From a virus: a DNA stretch of 29,189 nt. The position numbers were made by a program, and so were the translations under genes. Below the pieces are notes generated by a model, which was not told the DNA's origin, made no database searches, and saw only the letters and a list, made by a program, of their open reading frames with translations. Positions 1-10,748 of this stretch are shown here, in pieces. Every line of letters begins with the position of its first letter. Within the stretch, counting starts at the first letter, position 1. The stretch is taken from UHGV virus genome UHGV-0245401. One strand, 5' to 3'.

Positions 1-365
1 CCTACCAGTTTCTCGGTGTGGGTGAGGAAAACATGACGCTTGCCGGCGTGCTTTATCCCGAACTGACCGGCGGGAAGCTGACGATGACCACGCTCAGGCT
101 GATGGCAGAGGAAGGCCGGGCGTGGCCGTTGCTGGATGGCACCGGCATGATTTACGGCATGTATGTCATCAGCAGGGTGAGTGAAACAGGGAGTATTTTC
201 TTTGCAGACGGCACACCCAGAAAAATTGATTTTACGCTGTCGCTCACCCGCGTTGATGAATCACTGGCCGCGCTTTATGGCGATATCGGTAAACAGGCGG
301 AATCGCTCATCGGTAAAGCTGGCAGTATGGCGACCAGATTCACGGGTATGACGGGGGCGGGATAA
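1..365 (+). CDS. U: Tail protein gpU, C-terminal part; the gene is split by the window boundary and continues from 29075-29189
   Basis: Reading frame is open from position 1 and ends at TAA 363-365. Translation (…YQFLGVGEENMTLAGVLYPELTGGKLTMTTLRLMAEEGRAWPLLDG…) matches P2 gpU from memory. Joining window end to start gives exactly 480 nt (159 aa plus stop). Confidence 0.85.
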   Translation, partial: YQFLGVGEENMTLAGVLYPELTGGKLTMTTLRLMAEEGRAWPLLDGTGMIYGMYVISRVSETGSIFFADGTPRKIDFTLSLTRVDESLAALYGDIGKQAESLIGKAGSMATRFTGMTGAG

Positions 366-5342: not shown

Positions 5343-5567
5343 ATGCATACAGTTTCTGAAAATCAGTGCGGTAAATACGCATTACTGCTGCAACAGGCCA
5401 GAACCGAAGCACAGGCCGACGCTGCGACGCGCTTTTCTTCTCATCTTGACGCCATGATTCGCCATATCACAAAGGCGGAGTTATCCCGCGTGGAGATAGT
5501 CGAGCTGCTCAGTCAGGAGTCGGAAAAATTTCACAATATCGGATTGTCTCGCGGGGAGGTGCTTTGA
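5343..5567 (+). CDS. Hypothetical early protein in the orf80 position
   Basis: 74-aa ORF with AGGAG-like RBS context (ggagaaagtcATG), in the conserved P2 early-gene position. Confidence 0.6.
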
Positions 5568-6365: not shown

Positions 6366-8631
6366 AGCCTCCGGGCGTTTTGTCCCTCCGTCAGCATTTG
6401 CCGCAGGCACCGGTAAGGCGTTTACCGGTGCTTATGCATGGAACGCGCCACGCGAGGCTGTCGGGCGCGAAAGACCTCTTACACGTGACGAGATGCGTCA
6501 GGTGCAAGGTGTTTTATCCACGATTAACCGCCTGCCTTACTTTTTGCGCTCGCTGTTTACTTCACGCTATGACTACATCCGGCGCAATAAAAGCCCGGTG
6601 CACGGGTTTTATTTCCTCACATCCACTTTTCAGCGTCGTTTATGGCCGCGCATTGAGCGTGTGAATCAGCGCCATGAAATGAACACCGACGCGTCGATGC
6701 TGTTTCTGGCAGAGCGTGACCACTATGCGCGCCTGCCGGGAATGAATGACAAGGAGCTGAAAAAGTTTGCCGCCCGTATCTCATCGCAGCTTTTCATGAT
6801 GTATGAGGAACTCAGCGATGCCTGGGTGGATGCGCATGGCGAGAAAGAATCGCTGTTTACGGATGAGGCGCAGGCTCACCTCTATGGTCATGTTGCTGGC
6901 GCTGCACGTGCTTTCAATATTTCCCCTCTCTACTGGAAAAAATACCGTAAAGGACAGATGACCACGAGGCAGGCATATTCTGCCATTGCCCGTCTGTTTA
7001 ACGATGAGTGGTGGACTCATCAGCTTAAAGGCCAGCGTATGCGCTGGCATGAAGCGTTACTGATAGCTGTCGGGGAGGTCAATAAAGACCGTTCTCCTTA
7101 TGCCAGTAAACATGCCATTCGTGATGTGCGTGCGCGCCGCCAGGCAAATCTGGAATTTCTTAAATCGTGTGACCTTGAAAACAGGGAAACCGGCGAGCGC
7201 ATCGACCTTATCAGTAAGGTGATGGGCAGTATTTCTAATCCTGAAATTCGCCGGATGGAGCTGATGAACACCATTGCCGGTATTGAGCGTTACGCCGCCG
7301 CAGAGGGTGATGTGGGGATGTTTATCACGCTGACCGCGCCGTCAAAGTATCACCCGGCACGTCAGGTCGGAAAAGGCGAAAGTAAAACCGTCCAGCTTAA
7401 TCACGGCTGGAATGATGAGGCATTTAATCCAAAGGATGCGCAGCGATATCTCTGCCGTATCTGGAGCCTGATGCGCACGGCATTCAAGGATAATGACTTA
7501 CAGGTCTACGGTTTGCGTGTCGTCGAGCCACACCACGACGGAACGCCGCACTGGCATATGATGCTTTTTTGTAATCCACGCCAGCGTAACCAGATTATTG
7601 AAATCATGCGTCGCTATGCGCTCAAAGAGGATGGCGACGAAAGAGGAGCCGCGCGAAACCGTTTTCAGGCAAAACACCTTAACCGGGGCGGTGCTGCGGG
7701 ATATATCGCGAAATACATCTCAAAAAACATCGACGGCTATGCACTGGATGGTCAGCTCGATAATGATACCGGTAGGCCGCTGAAAGATACTGCGGCGGCT
7801 GTTACCGCATGGGCATCAACGTGGCGCATCCCGCAATTTAAAACGGTTGGCCTGCCGACAATGGGAGCTTACCGTGAGCTACGTAAATTGCCTCGCGGCG
7901 TCAGCATTGCTGATGAATTTGACGAACGCGTGGAGGCTGCACGCGCCGCCGCAGACAGTGGCGATTTTGCGCTGTATATCAGCGCGCAGGGCGGGGCAAA
8001 TGTCCCGCGCGATTGTCAGACTGTCAGGGTCGCCCGTAGCCCGTCGGATGACGTTAACGAATACGAGGAAGAAGTCGAGAGAGTGGTCGGCATTTACGCG
8101 CCGCATCTCGGCGCGCGTCATATTCATATCACCAGAACGACGGACTGGCGCATTGTGCCGAAAGTTCCGGTCGTTGAGCCTTTGACTTTAAAAAGCGGCA
8201 TCGCCGCGCCTCGGAGTCCTGTCAATAACTGTGGAAAGCTCACCGGTGGTGATACTTCGTTACCGGCTCCCACACCTTCTGAGCACGCCGCAGCAGTGCT
8301 TAATCTGGTAGATGACGGTGTTATCGAATGGAGTGACCCGGAGGTCGTGATGGCGCTCAGGGGCGCATTAAAACACGGACTGAGAACACCAAATCGTCAG
8401 CAAAGAAACGGAAGCCCGTTAAAACCACATGAAATTGCACCATCGGCCAGACTGACCCGGTCGGAAAGAATGCAAATTACCCGTATCCGCGTTGACCTCG
8501 CTCAGAACGGTATCAGGCCGCAACGATGGGAGCTTGAGGCGCTGGCGCGTGGCGCGACCGTAAATTATGACGGGAAAAAATTCACGTATCCGGTTGCTGA
8601 TGAGTGGCCGGGGTTCTCGTTACCCATTTGA
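6355..8631 (+). CDS. A: Replication initiator A, rolling-circle nickase
   Basis: Large ORF with the HUH-type motif …GTPHWHMMLF… and the active-site tyrosine motif …AGYIAKYISKNIDG…. Start taken at MAVKASGRF (6355) rather than the upstream in-frame ATG at 6313. Confidence 0.9.
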   Translation: MAVKASGRFVPPSAFAAGTGKAFTGAYAWNAPREAVGRERPLTRDEMRQVQGVLSTINRLPYFLRSLFTSRYDYIRRNKSPVHGFYFLTSTFQRRLWPRIERVNQRHEMNTDASMLFLAERDHYARLPGMNDKELKKFAARISSQLFMMYEELSDAWVDAHGEKESLFTDEAQAHLYGHVAGAARAFNISPLYWKKYRKGQMTTRQAYSAIARLFNDEWWTHQLKGQRMRWHEALLIAVGEVNKDRSPYASKHAIRDVRARRQANLEFLKSCDLENRETGERIDLISKVMGSISNPEIRRMELMNTIAGIERYAAAEGDVGMFITLTAPSKYHPARQVGKGESKTVQLNHGWNDEAFNPKDAQRYLCRIWSLMRTAFKDNDLQVYGLRVVEPHHDGTPHWHMMLFCNPRQRNQIIEIMRRYALKEDGDERGAARNRFQAKHLNRGGAAGYIAKYISKNIDGYALDGQLDNDTGRPLKDTAAAVTAWASTWRIPQFKTVGLPTMGAYRELRKLPRGVSIADEFDERVEAARAAADSGDFALYISAQGGANVPRDCQTVRVARSPSDDVNEYEEEVERVVGIYAPHLGARHIHITRTTDWRIVPKVPVVEPLTLKSGIAAPRSPVNNCGKLTGGDTSLPAPTPSEHAAAVLNLVDDGVIEWSDPEVVMALRGALKHGLRTPNRQQRNGSPLKPHEIAPSARLTRSERMQITRIRVDLAQNGIRPQRWELEALARGATVNYDGKKFTYPVADEWPGFSLPI

Positions 8632-8846
8632 GTAAAAACACAACGTGATTTGATATGGCATTGAATGGCTTATGCGGAGCAGTTATGGGGCAGCAGAAGG
8701 TCAATAGCATGCTGAATTAGAAGGCTAAATGCTATTGAGTGACTAGCATGTCGGTAAGGACAGCCGTTTGATCCGGGTCATAAAAGGCCATCCATTTAGT
8801 CTAATAAAATCATTGCGGGTAACCTTATGTCGACGCATAATTCGTC

Positions 8847-8861
8847 TTGAGCGAAGTCTTG
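8847..8861 (+). repeat. 15-bp direct repeat TTGAGCGAAGTCTTG, copy 1 of 2
   Basis: Exact 15-mer also found at 9111-9125. Confidence 0.6.
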
Positions 8862-8890
8862 TCAGTCTTTCATCGTATTGATGATGGGCG

Positions 8891-8922
8891 CAAAAAAACC
8901 ACCCTGGCAGGTGGTTTTTTTG
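8891..8922. terminator. Bidirectional intrinsic terminator (A7-hairpin-T7)
   Basis: AAAAAAACCACCCTGGCAGGTGGTTTTTTT: a GC stem flanked by an A-run and a T-run, able to terminate gene A on + and the small ORF on -. Confidence 0.65.
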
Positions 8923-8933
8923 TTTGAAGCATA

Positions 8934-9047
8934 TTAAAGCATAATGCTGACATTGATATTACTGACGTTTACTGACAAACCACTCGGACTACCGTTTGGA
9001 TAGCCAAAGAGGGCCAGAACGAGAATGCAGTAATAGCATTTCTTCAT
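8934..9047 (-). CDS. Small ORF, 37 aa (MKKCYYCILVLALFGYPNGSPSGLSVNVSNINVSIML), with a hydrophobic signal-peptide-like N-terminus
   Basis: Consensus AGGAGG Shine-Dalgarno 4 nt upstream of the ATG on the minus strand, with the bidirectional terminator directly downstream. Sits in the old/tin accessory position. No homolog recognised. Confidence 0.35.
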   Translation of the reverse strand: MKKCYYCILVLALFGYPNGSPSGLSVNVSNINVSIML

Positions 9048-9110
9048 ATTGCCTCCTGTAAGTAGAGGGCAACTTCCACCGGTATATGCGCTTCTTAGGT
9101 GGAATGACTT

Positions 9111-9125
9111 TTGAGCGAAGTCTTG
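9111..9125 (+). repeat. 15-bp direct repeat TTGAGCGAAGTCTTG, copy 2 of 2
   Basis: Exact copy of 8847-8861. Embedded in GACTT-ttgagcg-AAGTC, which has inverted symmetry. Lies about 65-80 nt upstream of the small ORF start. Confidence 0.6.
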
Positions 9126-9525
9126 CCCTGAAATAATGCTCTGTTTAAACGCAAAGTGATTTGGCATATCACCGAACAGAGAGCCGGAAAAACACAACAT
9201 ATAGTATGTCGTTGTTTCTAGGCATACATTCTATGTTGTGTAACAAGGGCTTTGCATTAAACATGTTTGAGATTTTATTGATGTAGCTCAAAGTAAAAAA
9301 CAGAGACTACGGATGATAAGGTCTTGAAAGCAATGTAAATTTTTTAAAGTTGCCAATTGCTTAAAAATGTACAGTTGCGGTATGGCGTACTTAAAAAGCT
9401 ATGCATGCAACAAGTGAATGTTTTTGCATGCGTTGGGGATGTCCGTTCAGGCGGCGTGCGGTCAGGACTGGTGCGGATCCATAGTATCTATGCAACTGCA
9501 TTAAAACCGCCCCGTGAAGCGGGCG

Positions 9526-9544
9526 GGCGAGGCGGGGAAAGCAC
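9526..9544. other. cos: cos, the 19-nt cohesive end sequence GGCGAGGCGGGGAAAGCAC
   Basis: Exact match to the P2 cohesive-end sequence as I recall it. Located just outside the portal gene Q, as in P2. Confidence 0.7.
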
Positions 9545-9685
9545 TGCGCGCTGGCGGTGGTGCTGATTTTATTTTTTCAGCGTCTGAGCGCGTCGTGATG
9601 GCGTTTAGATTGTTCGCCGGGGCGTTGGTGTGTCTGCGGGCTGTTTTGTGCGGTGGTGAGCGTGTGAGGGCGTGATGGCGGGGTG

Positions 9686-9710
9686 TAAAAAAGCCGCCCG
9701 CAGGCGGCGA
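9686..9710 (-). terminator. Terminator-like hairpin after Q on the minus strand
   Basis: On the minus strand, GCCGCC-tgcgg-GCGGC followed by TTTTTTA immediately after the Q stop. Confidence 0.5.
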
Positions 9711-9713
9711 TGT

Positions 9714-10748
9714 TCAGCCGTTGTCAGTGTCCAGTGAGTAGTTTTTAAAGCGGATGACCTCCTGACCGAGCCAGCCGTTTATTTCCCGAATCCTGTCCTG
9801 TAACGGGATTAGCTCATTGCGGACAAAGACCTTTGCCACTTTCTCAATATCGCCCAGTGACCCGACGTTCTCCGGCTTGCCACCCATCAACTGAAAGGGG
9901 ATGCGGTGTGCGTCCAGCAGGTCAGCGGCGCTGGCTTTTTTGATATTAAAAAAATCGTCCTTCGTCGCCACTTCACTGAGCGGGATAATTTTAATGCCGT
10001 CGGCTTTCCCCTGCGGGGCATAGAGAAACAGGTTTTTAAAGTTGTTGCGGCCTTTCGACTTCACCATGTTTTCGCGAAGCATTTCGATATCGTTGCGATC
10101 CTGCACGGCATCGGTAACGTACATGATGTATCCGGCATGTGCGCCGTTTTCGTAATACTTTCGGCGGAACAGCGTGGCCGACTCATTCAGCCAGGCAGAA
10201 TTAAGGGCGCTGAGATATTCCGGCAGGCCGTACAACTCCTGATTAATATCCGGCTCCAGCAGGTGAAACACGGAGCCGGGTGTGAAGGCTGTCGGCTCGT
10301 TGAAGGACGGCACCCACCAGTAAACATCCTCCTCCACGCCACGGCGGGTATATTTTGCCGGTGAGGTTTCCAGTCTGATGACCTTACCGGTGGTGCTGTA
10401 ACGCTTTTCCAGAAACGCATTACCGAACACCAGAAAATCCAGCACAAAACGGCTGAAATCCTGCTGGGAAAGCCACGGGTGCGGGATAAACGTTGAAGCC
10501 AGAATATTACGTTTGACGTAAATCGGTGAGCTGTGATGCACGGCAGCACGCAGGCTTTTTGCCAGACCGGTAAAGCTGACCGGCGGCTCATACCATCTGC
10601 CGTTACTGATGCACTCGACGTAATCCAGAATGTCACGGCGGTCGAGTACCGGCACCGGCTCGCCAAAGGTGAATGCTTCCATTTTCGGGGCGCTGGCGGT
10701 GATTGTTTTTGCCGCAGGTCGCGGTGTTTTCCCTTTTTTCTTGCTCAT
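9714..10748 (-). CDS. Q: Portal protein gpQ (344 aa)
   Basis: 344-aa ORF starting MSKKKGKTPRPAAKT…, matching P2 Q from memory. Adjacent to cos and upstream-overlapped by P. Confidence 0.93.
   Translation of the reverse strand: MSKKKGKTPRPAAKTITASAPKMEAFTFGEPVPVLDRRDILDYVECISNGRWYEPPVSFTGLAKSLRAAVHHSSPIYVKRNILASTFIPHPWLSQQDFSRFVLDFLVFGNAFLEKRYSTTGKVIRLETSPAKYTRRGVEEDVYWWVPSFNEPTAFTPGSVFHLLEPDINQELYGLPEYLSALNSAWLNESATLFRRKYYENGAHAGYIMYVTDAVQDRNDIEMLRENMVKSKGRNNFKNLFLYAPQGKADGIKIIPLSEVATKDDFFNIKKASAADLLDAHRIPFQLMGGKPENVGSLGDIEKVAKVFVRNELIPLQDRIREINGWLGQEVIRFKNYSLDTDNG

Follow-up and report, generated by a model that had tools for sequence, protein, structure and literature searches.

In the type I toxin-antitoxin (TA) systems tisB/istR-1, zorO/orzO, shoB/ohsC and dinQ/agrB, a short repeat gives a small RNA (sRNA) its complementarity to the 5′ untranslated region (5′UTR) of the toxin mRNA, far upstream of the ribosome-binding site. 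These mRNAs have a long, structured 5′UTR in which the Shine-Dalgarno sequence is sequestered, followed by a small hydrophobic open reading frame (ORF). TimP is a 38-amino-acid toxin with an uncleaved Sec signal, and it is repressed when the 5′ end of an sRNA pairs with 18 nucleotides of its 5′UTR (PMC7667032). Here we describe a locus in the virus genome UHGV-0245401, a P2-like phage genome whose 29,189 nucleotides are referred to below as the window. The interval between its gene A and its cos site (positions 8632 to 9525) carries a conserved cassette in which the minus strand encodes a 37-amino-acid peptide and the plus strand a predicted sRNA. Taken as a whole, this locus is probably best explained as an sRNA-regulated small-ORF cassette that resembles type I TA systems.

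The cassette shares several characteristics with timP/TimR. Proteins of the two systems are 37 to 38 amino acids in length and have a Sec-signal-like N-terminus with an unfavorable Leu at position −3 of the putative cleavage site. In both cases the 5′ end of the sRNA matches a short continuous stretch of the 5′UTR (18 nucleotides for TimR, 14 to 17 for the cassette) and is followed by an intrinsic terminator, and translation control appears to operate through 5′UTR structure. However, TimR is encoded upstream and divergently, whereas the cassette sRNA gene lies downstream, is convergent, and shares its terminator with the mRNA. The timPR genes are chromosomal (the ryfA locus of Salmonella and other enterobacteria), whereas the cassette resides on phages and plasmids and has a promoter of the FNR/nrdDG type. 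There is no sequence relationship between the two, and the ryfA model (RF00126) yields no match at E≤1 in positions 8500 to 9750.

With the tisB/istR-1 group, the cassette has in common the repeat-derived complementarity, the long structured 5′UTR and the small hydrophobic ORF. It differs from this group in that the sRNAs of the latter are divergent, their toxins have full transmembrane helices, and their inducers belong mostly to the SOS response rather than to FNR as predicted here; no sequence or family match links them. The ralR/ralA system of the rac prophage differs in that RalR is a DNase rather than a small membrane-type peptide; it is also unrelated in sequence.

A permissive search against Rfam returned only sub-threshold RNAI and Phe-leader matches, which are due to the terminator element, and no match at gathering score was obtained with the plasmid homologues of the cassette. 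The scores of the ColE1 RNAI model (RF00106), 24.8 and 24.2 bits, fall below its gathering threshold of 47, and the match covers the terminator hairpin only. Given this lack of an Rfam match, the likenesses to timP/TimR, and the differences in sequence, layout, context and promoter, the best reading of the sequence is that the cassette represents a new family of a known kind, one that is type I TA-like. It is unusual in that its promoter derives from the host nrdDG operon and in that sRNA and mRNA use a single terminator.

Complementary repeats, a predicted sRNA and a small coding gene

The initial annotation of this interval had recorded that no large ORF separates gene A from cos, that a 37-amino-acid ORF with a hydrophobic N-terminus follows an AGGAGG on the minus strand, and that this ORF is followed by a bidirectional terminator (A7-hairpin-T7) and bracketed by exact 15-bp direct repeats. 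All of these observations are borne out by our analysis, as are the inverted repeats it had seen between the ORF and cos, which we find at 9192-9201/9232-9241 and 9403-9413/9421-9431. It had also placed the second direct repeat in the promoter region of the ORF. We instead assign this copy to the predicted 5′UTR, with the promoter predicted further upstream, at ~9228-9291.

Three clades of the cassette were compared, comprising phage copies, Klebsiella-type plasmid copies and Salmonella plasmid copies. The window contains exactly two copies of the repeated sequence TTGAGCGAAGTCTTG (8847-8861 and 9111-9125); by chance, 0.08 matches would be expected even with two mismatches tolerated. When the copies of a direct repeat are transcribed from opposite strands, the resulting RNAs are complementary, and the conservation of this complementarity identifies the repeats as the putative seed of an sRNA and its target in the mRNA 5′UTR. 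In the window, the predicted duplex is 17 bp long, with 15 Watson-Crick pairs followed by a G·U and then a C-G pair. Other phage alleles form 14 to 15 bp, Klebsiella copies 17 bp and Salmonella copies 16 bp. The positions flanking the seed (8862-8863) read UC, CU or CC, each of which can pair with GG in the mRNA.

In the Salmonella clade the sRNA carries UGAGCAAAGCCUUACC and the mRNA GGUAAGGCUUUGCUCA, such that three positions are altered in both copies of the repeat. A paired core of ~13 to 14 bp is retained in all eight sequence types (8/8), with three pairs showing double changes (L057, of the Salmonella clade). Overall, 91% of seed-target cells in the alignment are paired, compared with 28-42% in controls in which the partner was slid. 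A rough estimate of the probability that 16 nucleotides stay complementary at the observed divergence under neutrality is ~5e-6.

The plus strand is predicted to encode an sRNA of ~75 nucleotides, whose 5′ end near 8848 is itself a prediction, good to within ~2 nucleotides. Type I antitoxins derive from an adjacent gene complementary to the toxin mRNA, and the sRNA gene predicted here offers 14 to 17 bp of such complementarity in every clade. The 5′ region of the RNA is largely unpaired in the predicted fold of all three clades. Hairpin 2 differs in sequence in each clade, but compensatory changes have preserved six of its pairs; G·U pairs in its stem favor the plus strand as the folded RNA. 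Among the predicted promoter elements, the −10 is identical in the three clades and the −35 reads TTGCG followed by G, A or T, while the sequence of the 17-bp spacer (~18 bp in the Salmonella copy) has fully diverged. The terminator comprises ~37 nucleotides that are invariant across representatives of the main clades, which are only ~72% identical overall; the sole departure, seen in a few further copies, is a single A or T in the runs on either side. From this arrangement we deduce two convergent transcription units with a shared bidirectional terminator.

Upstream of the sRNA promoter lies an FNR/CRP-like dyad, TTGAT-N4-GTCAT (8768-8781), whose half-sites are kept in phage and Klebsiella copies while the central four nucleotides vary; only the second half-site is clearly kept in the Salmonella copy. 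The dyad is located ~72 to 74 bp upstream of the predicted sRNA start, and its match to the consensus is not significant alone. The sRNA may be co-regulated with the mRNA. We rejected a consensus minus-strand promoter (CTGACA-17-AATTAT, 8865-8837), given that the other clades do not preserve its −35. A predicted duplex of the sRNA with window positions 67-97 (−30.1 kcal/mol) is an imperfect GC-rich match that we judged to be due to chance, and no convincing pairing of the sRNA to the nrdD 5′UTR was found. Separately, we observed that the terminator stem-loop (8893-8920) is 100% identical over 27 to 28 nucleotides to a sequence in ~300 small plasmids, most of those listed being 2 to 20 kb in size, and the plasmids probably being of ColE1 type. 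The identity may stem from common descent or from convergence on a strong terminator.

Toxins of type I systems are typically encoded by small hydrophobic ORFs of fewer than 60 codons, and the minus-strand ORF (9047 to 8934, with its Shine-Dalgarno sequence AGGAGG at 9057-9052) fits this description, with 37 amino acids and a grand average of hydropathy (GRAVY) of 0.77. It is intact and 37 codons long in 46 of the 46 phage-type loci examined, which represent four protein and seven DNA variants; nine of the 12 variable sites among phage alleles fall at codon position 3 and none at position 2. The same length is found in all Klebsiella-type plasmid copies examined, including one Enterobacter plasmid and one plasmid borne by E. 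coli, although the Klebsiella-type peptide MNRLCLCILVLTLFGYPVGSQSGWSVNVSHINVNISL is identical to that of the window at only 24 of 37 residues. The Salmonella plasmid ORF encodes 39 amino acids. A strong Shine-Dalgarno sequence is retained in all clades, and the pairwise ratio of nonsynonymous to synonymous substitution rates (dN/dS) is 0.22-0.33 in six of six comparisons. As judged by this substitution pattern, the ORF is a coding gene under purifying selection.

The peptide begins with a basic N-terminus and a hydrophobic stretch of ~13 residues (residues 4 to 16), continues with a Pro/Gly/Ser-rich linker, and ends in a stretch that alternates polar and hydrophobic residues. Its N-terminus resembles a Sec signal or an anchor, without a full transmembrane helix. 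No match was found in Pfam or NCBIfam at E≤10, and the one match in PHROG has E=0.34. Profiles of known type I toxin families (Hok, Ldr, Ibs, TisB, ShoB, ZorO, DinQ and others) likewise gave no match, and a literature search on the motifs of the peptide returned nothing relevant. Only two near-identical clusters were recovered when 5.8 billion proteins were searched with the peptide. One genome (NCBI, a 4.9-Mb contig) encodes an ORF variant, protein P0002, that has lost the stop codon and reads through the terminator to a total of 68 amino acids.

The structured leader and the predicted nrdDG-like promoter

The mRNA leader contains four predicted helices (Table 1) that are maintained despite sequence divergence. 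Seven pairs in these helices show compensatory change, and none of 500 shuffled alignments matched the observed values for paired cells, compensatory pairs or covariation score. Within the hairpin that includes the Shine-Dalgarno sequence, one pair progresses from U-A to U·G to C-G across clades, and the Salmonella copy has its own CCUC/GAGG hairpin, as judged by eye on the alignment. The stem of hairpin 1 is re-formed in Klebsiella copies. In the nearly invariant 43-nucleotide element, the outer stem is formed by 9181-9175 with 9145-9139, and the Salmonella copy keeps both the outer and inner stems by means of four double substitutions. These patterns indicate that the Shine-Dalgarno sequence of the ORF is sequestered in a hairpin. 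Type I toxin mRNAs are held inert by 5′UTR structure or by sequestration of the Shine-Dalgarno sequence, and this conserved hairpin would serve the same end. A long-range fold proposed by RNAalifold, in which an upstream CUCUG pairs with the Shine-Dalgarno sequence, was not adopted because the local helices covary better. We also noted an imperfect 30-nucleotide direct repeat (73% identity), of which one copy lies just past the gene A stop (8636-8665) and the other inside the nearly invariant 5′UTR element (9147-9176).

Upstream of the leader, a BLAST match of 68 bp (9249-9316; 88% identity, E=4e-12) connects the cassette with the region between nrdD and treC in E. coli, and the alignment can be extended to ~155 bp. 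The match is oriented such that the promoter reads toward the small ORF. The order FNR-2, 17 bp, FNR-1, 13 bp and −10 has the same spacing in nrdDG and in all three clades, with the centers of the two FNR boxes at 9284.5 and 9253.5, which is 31 bp apart. The distal box (9278-9291) is the sole match to the FNR consensus with one mismatch in the window; its half-sites are kept in Klebsiella copies, whereas its center has diverged. The −10 downstream of FNR-1 is TAGAAT or TAAAAT. The FNR positions of nrdDG are reportedly −64.5 and −33.5 (Boston & Atlung 2003). By this homology, the predicted ORF promoter is a relative of the host nrdDG promoter, and the conserved FNR/−10 spacing therefore predicts a transcription start near 9220 and anaerobic, FNR-dependent expression.

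The matched host region corresponds to the probe used for NrdR binding at nrdDG (PMC12176259). The nrdDG promoter is described as activated by FNR, with one FNR site overlapping NrdR box 1 (PMC2892513). An NrdR site consists of two 16-bp boxes, each with C4, A6, A8, T9, T11 and G13, separated by 15 to 16 bp (PMC13584703). In phage alleles only, the box ATACTATATGTTGTGT (9207-9192) retains six of these six positions. The second box (9241-9226) retains four of six and lacks the critical G13, and the linker measures 18 bp in the window and 16 bp in the remaining phage alleles. Both boxes are absent from the plasmid clades. NrdR control is thus unsupported, because there is a single qualifying box, an 18-bp linker and neither box in the plasmid clades. 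Consequently, we downgraded the reading of the inverted repeat at 9192-9241 as an NrdR operator; a stem-loop at the 5′ end of the mRNA fits the conserved feature better. The cassette copy of the promoter therefore differs from its host relative, which is repressed by NrdR, in not retaining the pair of NrdR boxes, and in preceding a 37-amino-acid ORF rather than ribonucleotide reductase genes.

Further upstream, ~110 to 120 bp from the predicted start, the 10-nucleotide element AAATTTACAT is invariant upstream of E. coli nrdD, in the two plasmid clades and in phage alleles of the window, S65EC and E24377A types; the P2-DC1 allele has two mismatches to it. This element may be an unrecognized regulatory site of nrdDG-type promoters.

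Extent, distribution and surroundings of the cassette

Alignment of phage and plasmid copies places the edges of the cassette at ~8717 and ~9345, for a length of ~625 bp, and indicates that the features described above are parts of one conserved, self-contained cassette with two convergent genes. Among phage alleles, conservation is high from 8840 to 9349 and ends at ~9350, whereas 8632-8840 is more variable. The whole 894-bp interval is present at ≥95% identity in ~137 complete E. coli genomes, and is annotated in none of the E. coli records listed. The cassette core occurs in 152 of 5,426 complete E. coli genomes, where it lies directly 3′ of gene A. The cassette-only allele is carried by ~2.5% of complete E. 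coli genomes and is left blank by automatic annotation. Three further phage alleles, 83-86% identical, keep the first ~740 to 770 bp after gene A and then carry differing cargo before cos, which in one is an AAA ATPase and a hypothetical gene and in the others an ImmA/IrrE peptidase and hypothetical genes. The cassette was also found on 28 IMG/VR contigs and 12 metagenome contigs, which added no diversity, and a degenerate ORF pattern had no matches among GTDB species representatives.

One allele (L005, from E. coli 377323_2f) is recombinant at the equivalent of ~9140-9260, being of the 86% type upstream of the invariant 5′UTR block and of the window type downstream; exchange therefore occurs inside the cassette. 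A different arrangement is seen in E. coli E24377A (L003, ~2390-2620), where the cassette and the cos flank are followed by a complete cos-like GGCGAGGCGGGGAAAGCAC, and only then by the AAA ATPase and hypothetical gene. Because a complete cos-like sequence precedes the cargo genes, it seems that the cargo of E24377A-type alleles lies on the far side of cos, or that cos is duplicated.

Outside of phages, a sensitive blastn search located the core on 423 large enterobacterial plasmids at ~72% identity, of which 394 are from Klebsiella and the others from Salmonella, Escherichia, Enterobacter, Serratia, Leclercia and Citrobacter. These plasmids are mostly conjugative IncFIB/IncFII replicons in which accessory genes and insertion sequence (IS) elements surround the cassette; records almost never annotate it. 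The third and still more diverged clade is represented by ~15 Salmonella IncFII plasmids. On the Klebsiella-derived virulence plasmid pHvKP51-Vir-P15 (L047), a PGAP-annotated dinQ type I toxin gene (5398-5535) is present ~1 kb from the cassette, between IS elements, and small toxin loci may cluster near the cassette on this plasmid.

Gene A of the window, which encodes the replication endonuclease, ends with its stop at 8631, and there is no long ORF between this point and the cos site GGCGAGGCGGGGAAAGCAC at 9526-9544. The portal and terminase genes follow beyond cos on the minus strand. Given these two boundaries, positions 8632-9525 constitute the gpA-gpQ hotspot, a known cargo-exchange site that holds old and tin in P2 (PMC9122126). 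The spacer at 8632-8716 and the adjoining flank of the cassette have the highest density of variable sites among phage alleles. At the other end, 9391-9525 is assigned to the cos flank because it is common to P2-like phages with unrelated cargo. It includes the inverted repeat GCATGCAACAA/TTTTTGCATGC (9403-9413/9421-9431), which, being conserved across differing cargo, is more plausibly part of the packaging region than of the cassette.

Table 1. Coordinates of features assigned to the interval between gene A and cos
Position	Strand	Feature	Basis or remark
8632-8716	.	Spacer from gene A stop to cassette; phage-specific, poorly conserved	Plasmid homology begins near 8717
8717-8812	+	Upstream region of sRNA promoter; A/T-rich stretch and FNR/CRP-like dyad TTGATCCGGGTCAT (8768-8781)	Conserved between phage and Klebsiella copies
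8813-8841	+	Predicted sigma-70 sRNA promoter; −35 TTGCGG (8813-8818), 17-bp spacer, −10 CATAAT (8836-8841)	Position-weight-matrix scan
8847-8863	+	Repeat copy 1, putative sRNA seed UUGAGCGAAGUCUUGUC	Exact 15-mer repeat; pairs with 9127-9111
8848-8922	+	Predicted sRNA, ~75 nucleotides; 5′ seed (8848-8863), hairpin 2 (8865-8889), terminator hairpin and U-tail (8891-8922)	Same fold in three clades
8891-8922	.	Bidirectional intrinsic terminator, common to convergent sRNA and mRNA	Two perfect 13-nucleotide arms, A7 and T7 flanks
8934-9047	-	37-amino-acid ORF MKKCYYCILVLALFGYPNGSPSGLSVNVSNINVSIML, stop included	Intact in all copies examined; dN/dS 0.22-0.33
9048-9073	-	Predicted anti-Shine-Dalgarno hairpin; CCCUCU (9069-9064) pairs with AGGAGG (9057-9052)	Compensatory and consistent changes
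9074-9104	-	Predicted 5′UTR hairpin 1, UUCCACC...GGUGGAA, conserved loop AGAAGCGCAUAUA	Compensatory A-U to G-C change among phage alleles
9111-9127	-	Repeat copy 2, putative sRNA target in mRNA 5′UTR GGCAAGACUUCGCUCAA	64-78 nucleotides upstream of ATG
9139-9181	-	Nearly invariant 43-nucleotide 5′UTR element; outer stem CUCUGUU/AACAGAG, inner hairpin GUGAU/AUCAC, loop UGCCA	Phage compared with Klebsiella copies
9192-9216	-	Predicted stem-loop at mRNA 5′ end	Hairpin in three clades, unrelated sequences
9228-9291	-	Predicted FNR-type promoter; FNR-2 TTGAGCTACATCAA (9291-9278), FNR-1 TTAATGCAAAGCCC (9260-9247), −10 TAGAAT (9233-9228)	BLAST, position-weight-matrix scan
9292-9345	.	Upstream nrdDG-like region with invariant AAATTTACAT (9340-9331, minus strand); right edge of cassette	Phage conservation breaks after ~9349
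9391-9525	.	Left cos flank, outside cassette	Matches covering query 760-894 only, in Yersinia and Escherichia P2-like phages and many E. coli prophages

Alternative explanations, proposed mechanism and significance

Three readings had been offered for this interval by the initial annotation: a small membrane peptide or toxin, a small-RNA-based module, or a remnant of replaced cargo whose repeats are recombination or insertion scars. The first two are supported in combination, as one sRNA-regulated small-ORF cassette, and the third we consider extremely improbable. It is true that the site is a cargo-exchange hotspot (PMC9122126) and that allele L005 is recombinant within the cassette. However, both repeats are internal to a 625-bp unit that is conserved outside of P2, on plasmids without any P2 context, and no allele with an empty site or a single repeat copy was found among those compared. 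Moreover, both copies co-vary at the same three positions in L057, and the scar reading is ruled out because seed-target complementarity was kept as both copies changed together. An equally poor prospect is that the interval is conserved non-coding DNA flanking cos and needed for packaging only, a scenario that the initial annotation had also entertained. The interval does adjoin cos, and 9391-9525 is indeed shared cos flank, but a packaging region should be contiguous with cos and present whatever the cargo, and this description suits 9391-9525 only. Most P2-like phages lack 8717-9345, cargo genes (1-3 kb) separate the cassette from cos in other phage alleles, and the plasmid copies have no cos at all.

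We also considered whether the ORF might be incidental, with one transcript acting as an sRNA and the other as its sponge, or with the two regulating host targets. The structures of both RNAs are conserved, and the terminator and the 43-nucleotide 5′UTR element are more conserved than the coding sequence. This proposal is nonetheless very improbable in view of the codon-position pattern of substitutions and a dN/dS of ~0.25, together with an ORF whose length and frame are fixed across ~28% DNA divergence and whose strong Shine-Dalgarno sequence is present in all clades. A more serious, although still rather unlikely, alternative retains the RNA architecture and differs in the nature of the product, which would be a small, non-toxic membrane or periplasmic protein with a role in anoxia (it might modulate a membrane complex, for instance, or keep superinfecting phage out at the envelope), while the sRNA would be a fine-tuning regulator. 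Numerous small proteins under sRNA control are not toxins, the N-terminus resembles a Sec signal or anchor rather than a full transmembrane helix, an FNR-type promoter suggests condition-specific use, and even TimP is tolerated at native levels (PMC7667032). What such a protein would leave less well accounted for is the presence of the cassette on conjugative plasmids and in a phage defense hotspot, as well as the traits typical of addiction or type I TA modules: tight, multilayer repression by a Shine-Dalgarno hairpin and an sRNA, a long structured 5′UTR, and stand-alone mobility among IS elements.

Several observations weigh against the type I TA-like interpretation that we prefer. At ~13 residues, the hydrophobic stretch falls short of the transmembrane helices found in classical type I toxins, and a single-sequence AlphaFold2 model of the peptide is of low confidence (predicted local distance difference test score of 60) and is uninformative beyond the N-terminal helix. 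The closest precedents have a divergent layout, whereas the sRNA gene predicted here is downstream and convergent. A single diverged lineage (L057) accounts for all three double substitutions in the seed. The minus-strand sigma-70 elements are weak alone and were identified by homology, and one FNR-1 half-site is degraded in the window (TTAAT), although it is TTGAT in other alleles and in plasmid copies. In K. pneumoniae MGH 78578, a strain for which differential RNA sequencing (dRNA-seq), RNA immunoprecipitation sequencing (RIP-seq) and RNA interaction by ligation and sequencing (RIL-seq) data are available (PMC10907235), the plasmid pKPN3 lacks the cassette in bases 1-152 kb of its 176 kb. 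The plasmid sRNAs reported for this strain (KpnR_124, 126, 127 and 128) are at other loci, beside a Hok toxin among others (PMC10907235).

For the type I TA-like cassette we propose the following mechanism. The minus-strand mRNA would begin near 9220 from the nrdDG-derived promoter and end at the terminator at 8891-8922. Its 5′UTR of ~173 nucleotides would present, in order, the 5′ stem-loop, the two-stem element, the target site (9127-9111), hairpin 1 and the hairpin that hides AGGAGG, with the target site predicted to be largely unpaired. The plus-strand promoter (TTGCGG-17-CATAAT) would yield an sRNA of ~75 nucleotides that ends at the same terminator, and whose first ~16 nucleotides, corresponding to the other repeat copy, would be complementary to the mRNA 5′UTR. 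By analogy to TimR/timP (PMC7667032), pairing of the two RNAs should lead to a block of translation, to decay, or to both. Synthesis of the peptide would then require an excess of mRNA over sRNA, for instance upon activation by FNR in anoxia, or after a halt in transcription during which the sRNA decays. For repression of this type, in which an sRNA acts through the 5′UTR, IstR-1/tisB and OrzO/zorO are further precedents. Once produced, the 37-amino-acid peptide may, by analogy, insert into the inner membrane through its signal-peptide-like or anchor-like N-terminus.

We would place toxicity of the peptide slightly below an even chance. A role in addiction or abortive infection fits the cassette, and a type I TA function of this kind is favored because of the conjugative plasmids, the phage defense hotspot and the layered repression. 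The most far-reaching version of this idea, which we regard as unlikely but worth stating, is that the ‘empty’ old/tin hotspot holds a minimal suicide or addiction module under RNA control, coupled to a copy of the host nrdDG promoter. Production of the peptide would report anoxia via FNR, and perhaps a disturbance of nucleotide pools via the residual NrdR box, and would be released upon loss of a short-lived sRNA, as might occur when a phage shuts off transcription or when a plasmid or prophage is lost. On this view, the cassette would constitute a new and widespread type I family that provides anti-phage defense in P2 hotspots and also stabilizes resistance and virulence plasmids of Klebsiella.

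These findings bear on how such loci are catalogued. In one survey, P2 genomes with both main defense hotspots empty were never seen (PMC13586616). Surveys of the gpA-gpQ hotspot count genes, and the conserved gene pair of the cassette-only allele escapes annotation pipelines. Copies of the cassette are likewise unannotated on hundreds of clinically important Klebsiella IncF plasmids. If our interpretation is correct, the cassette would be an uncommon example of a host FNR-dependent promoter being copied by a mobile element to time the expression of a small protein.

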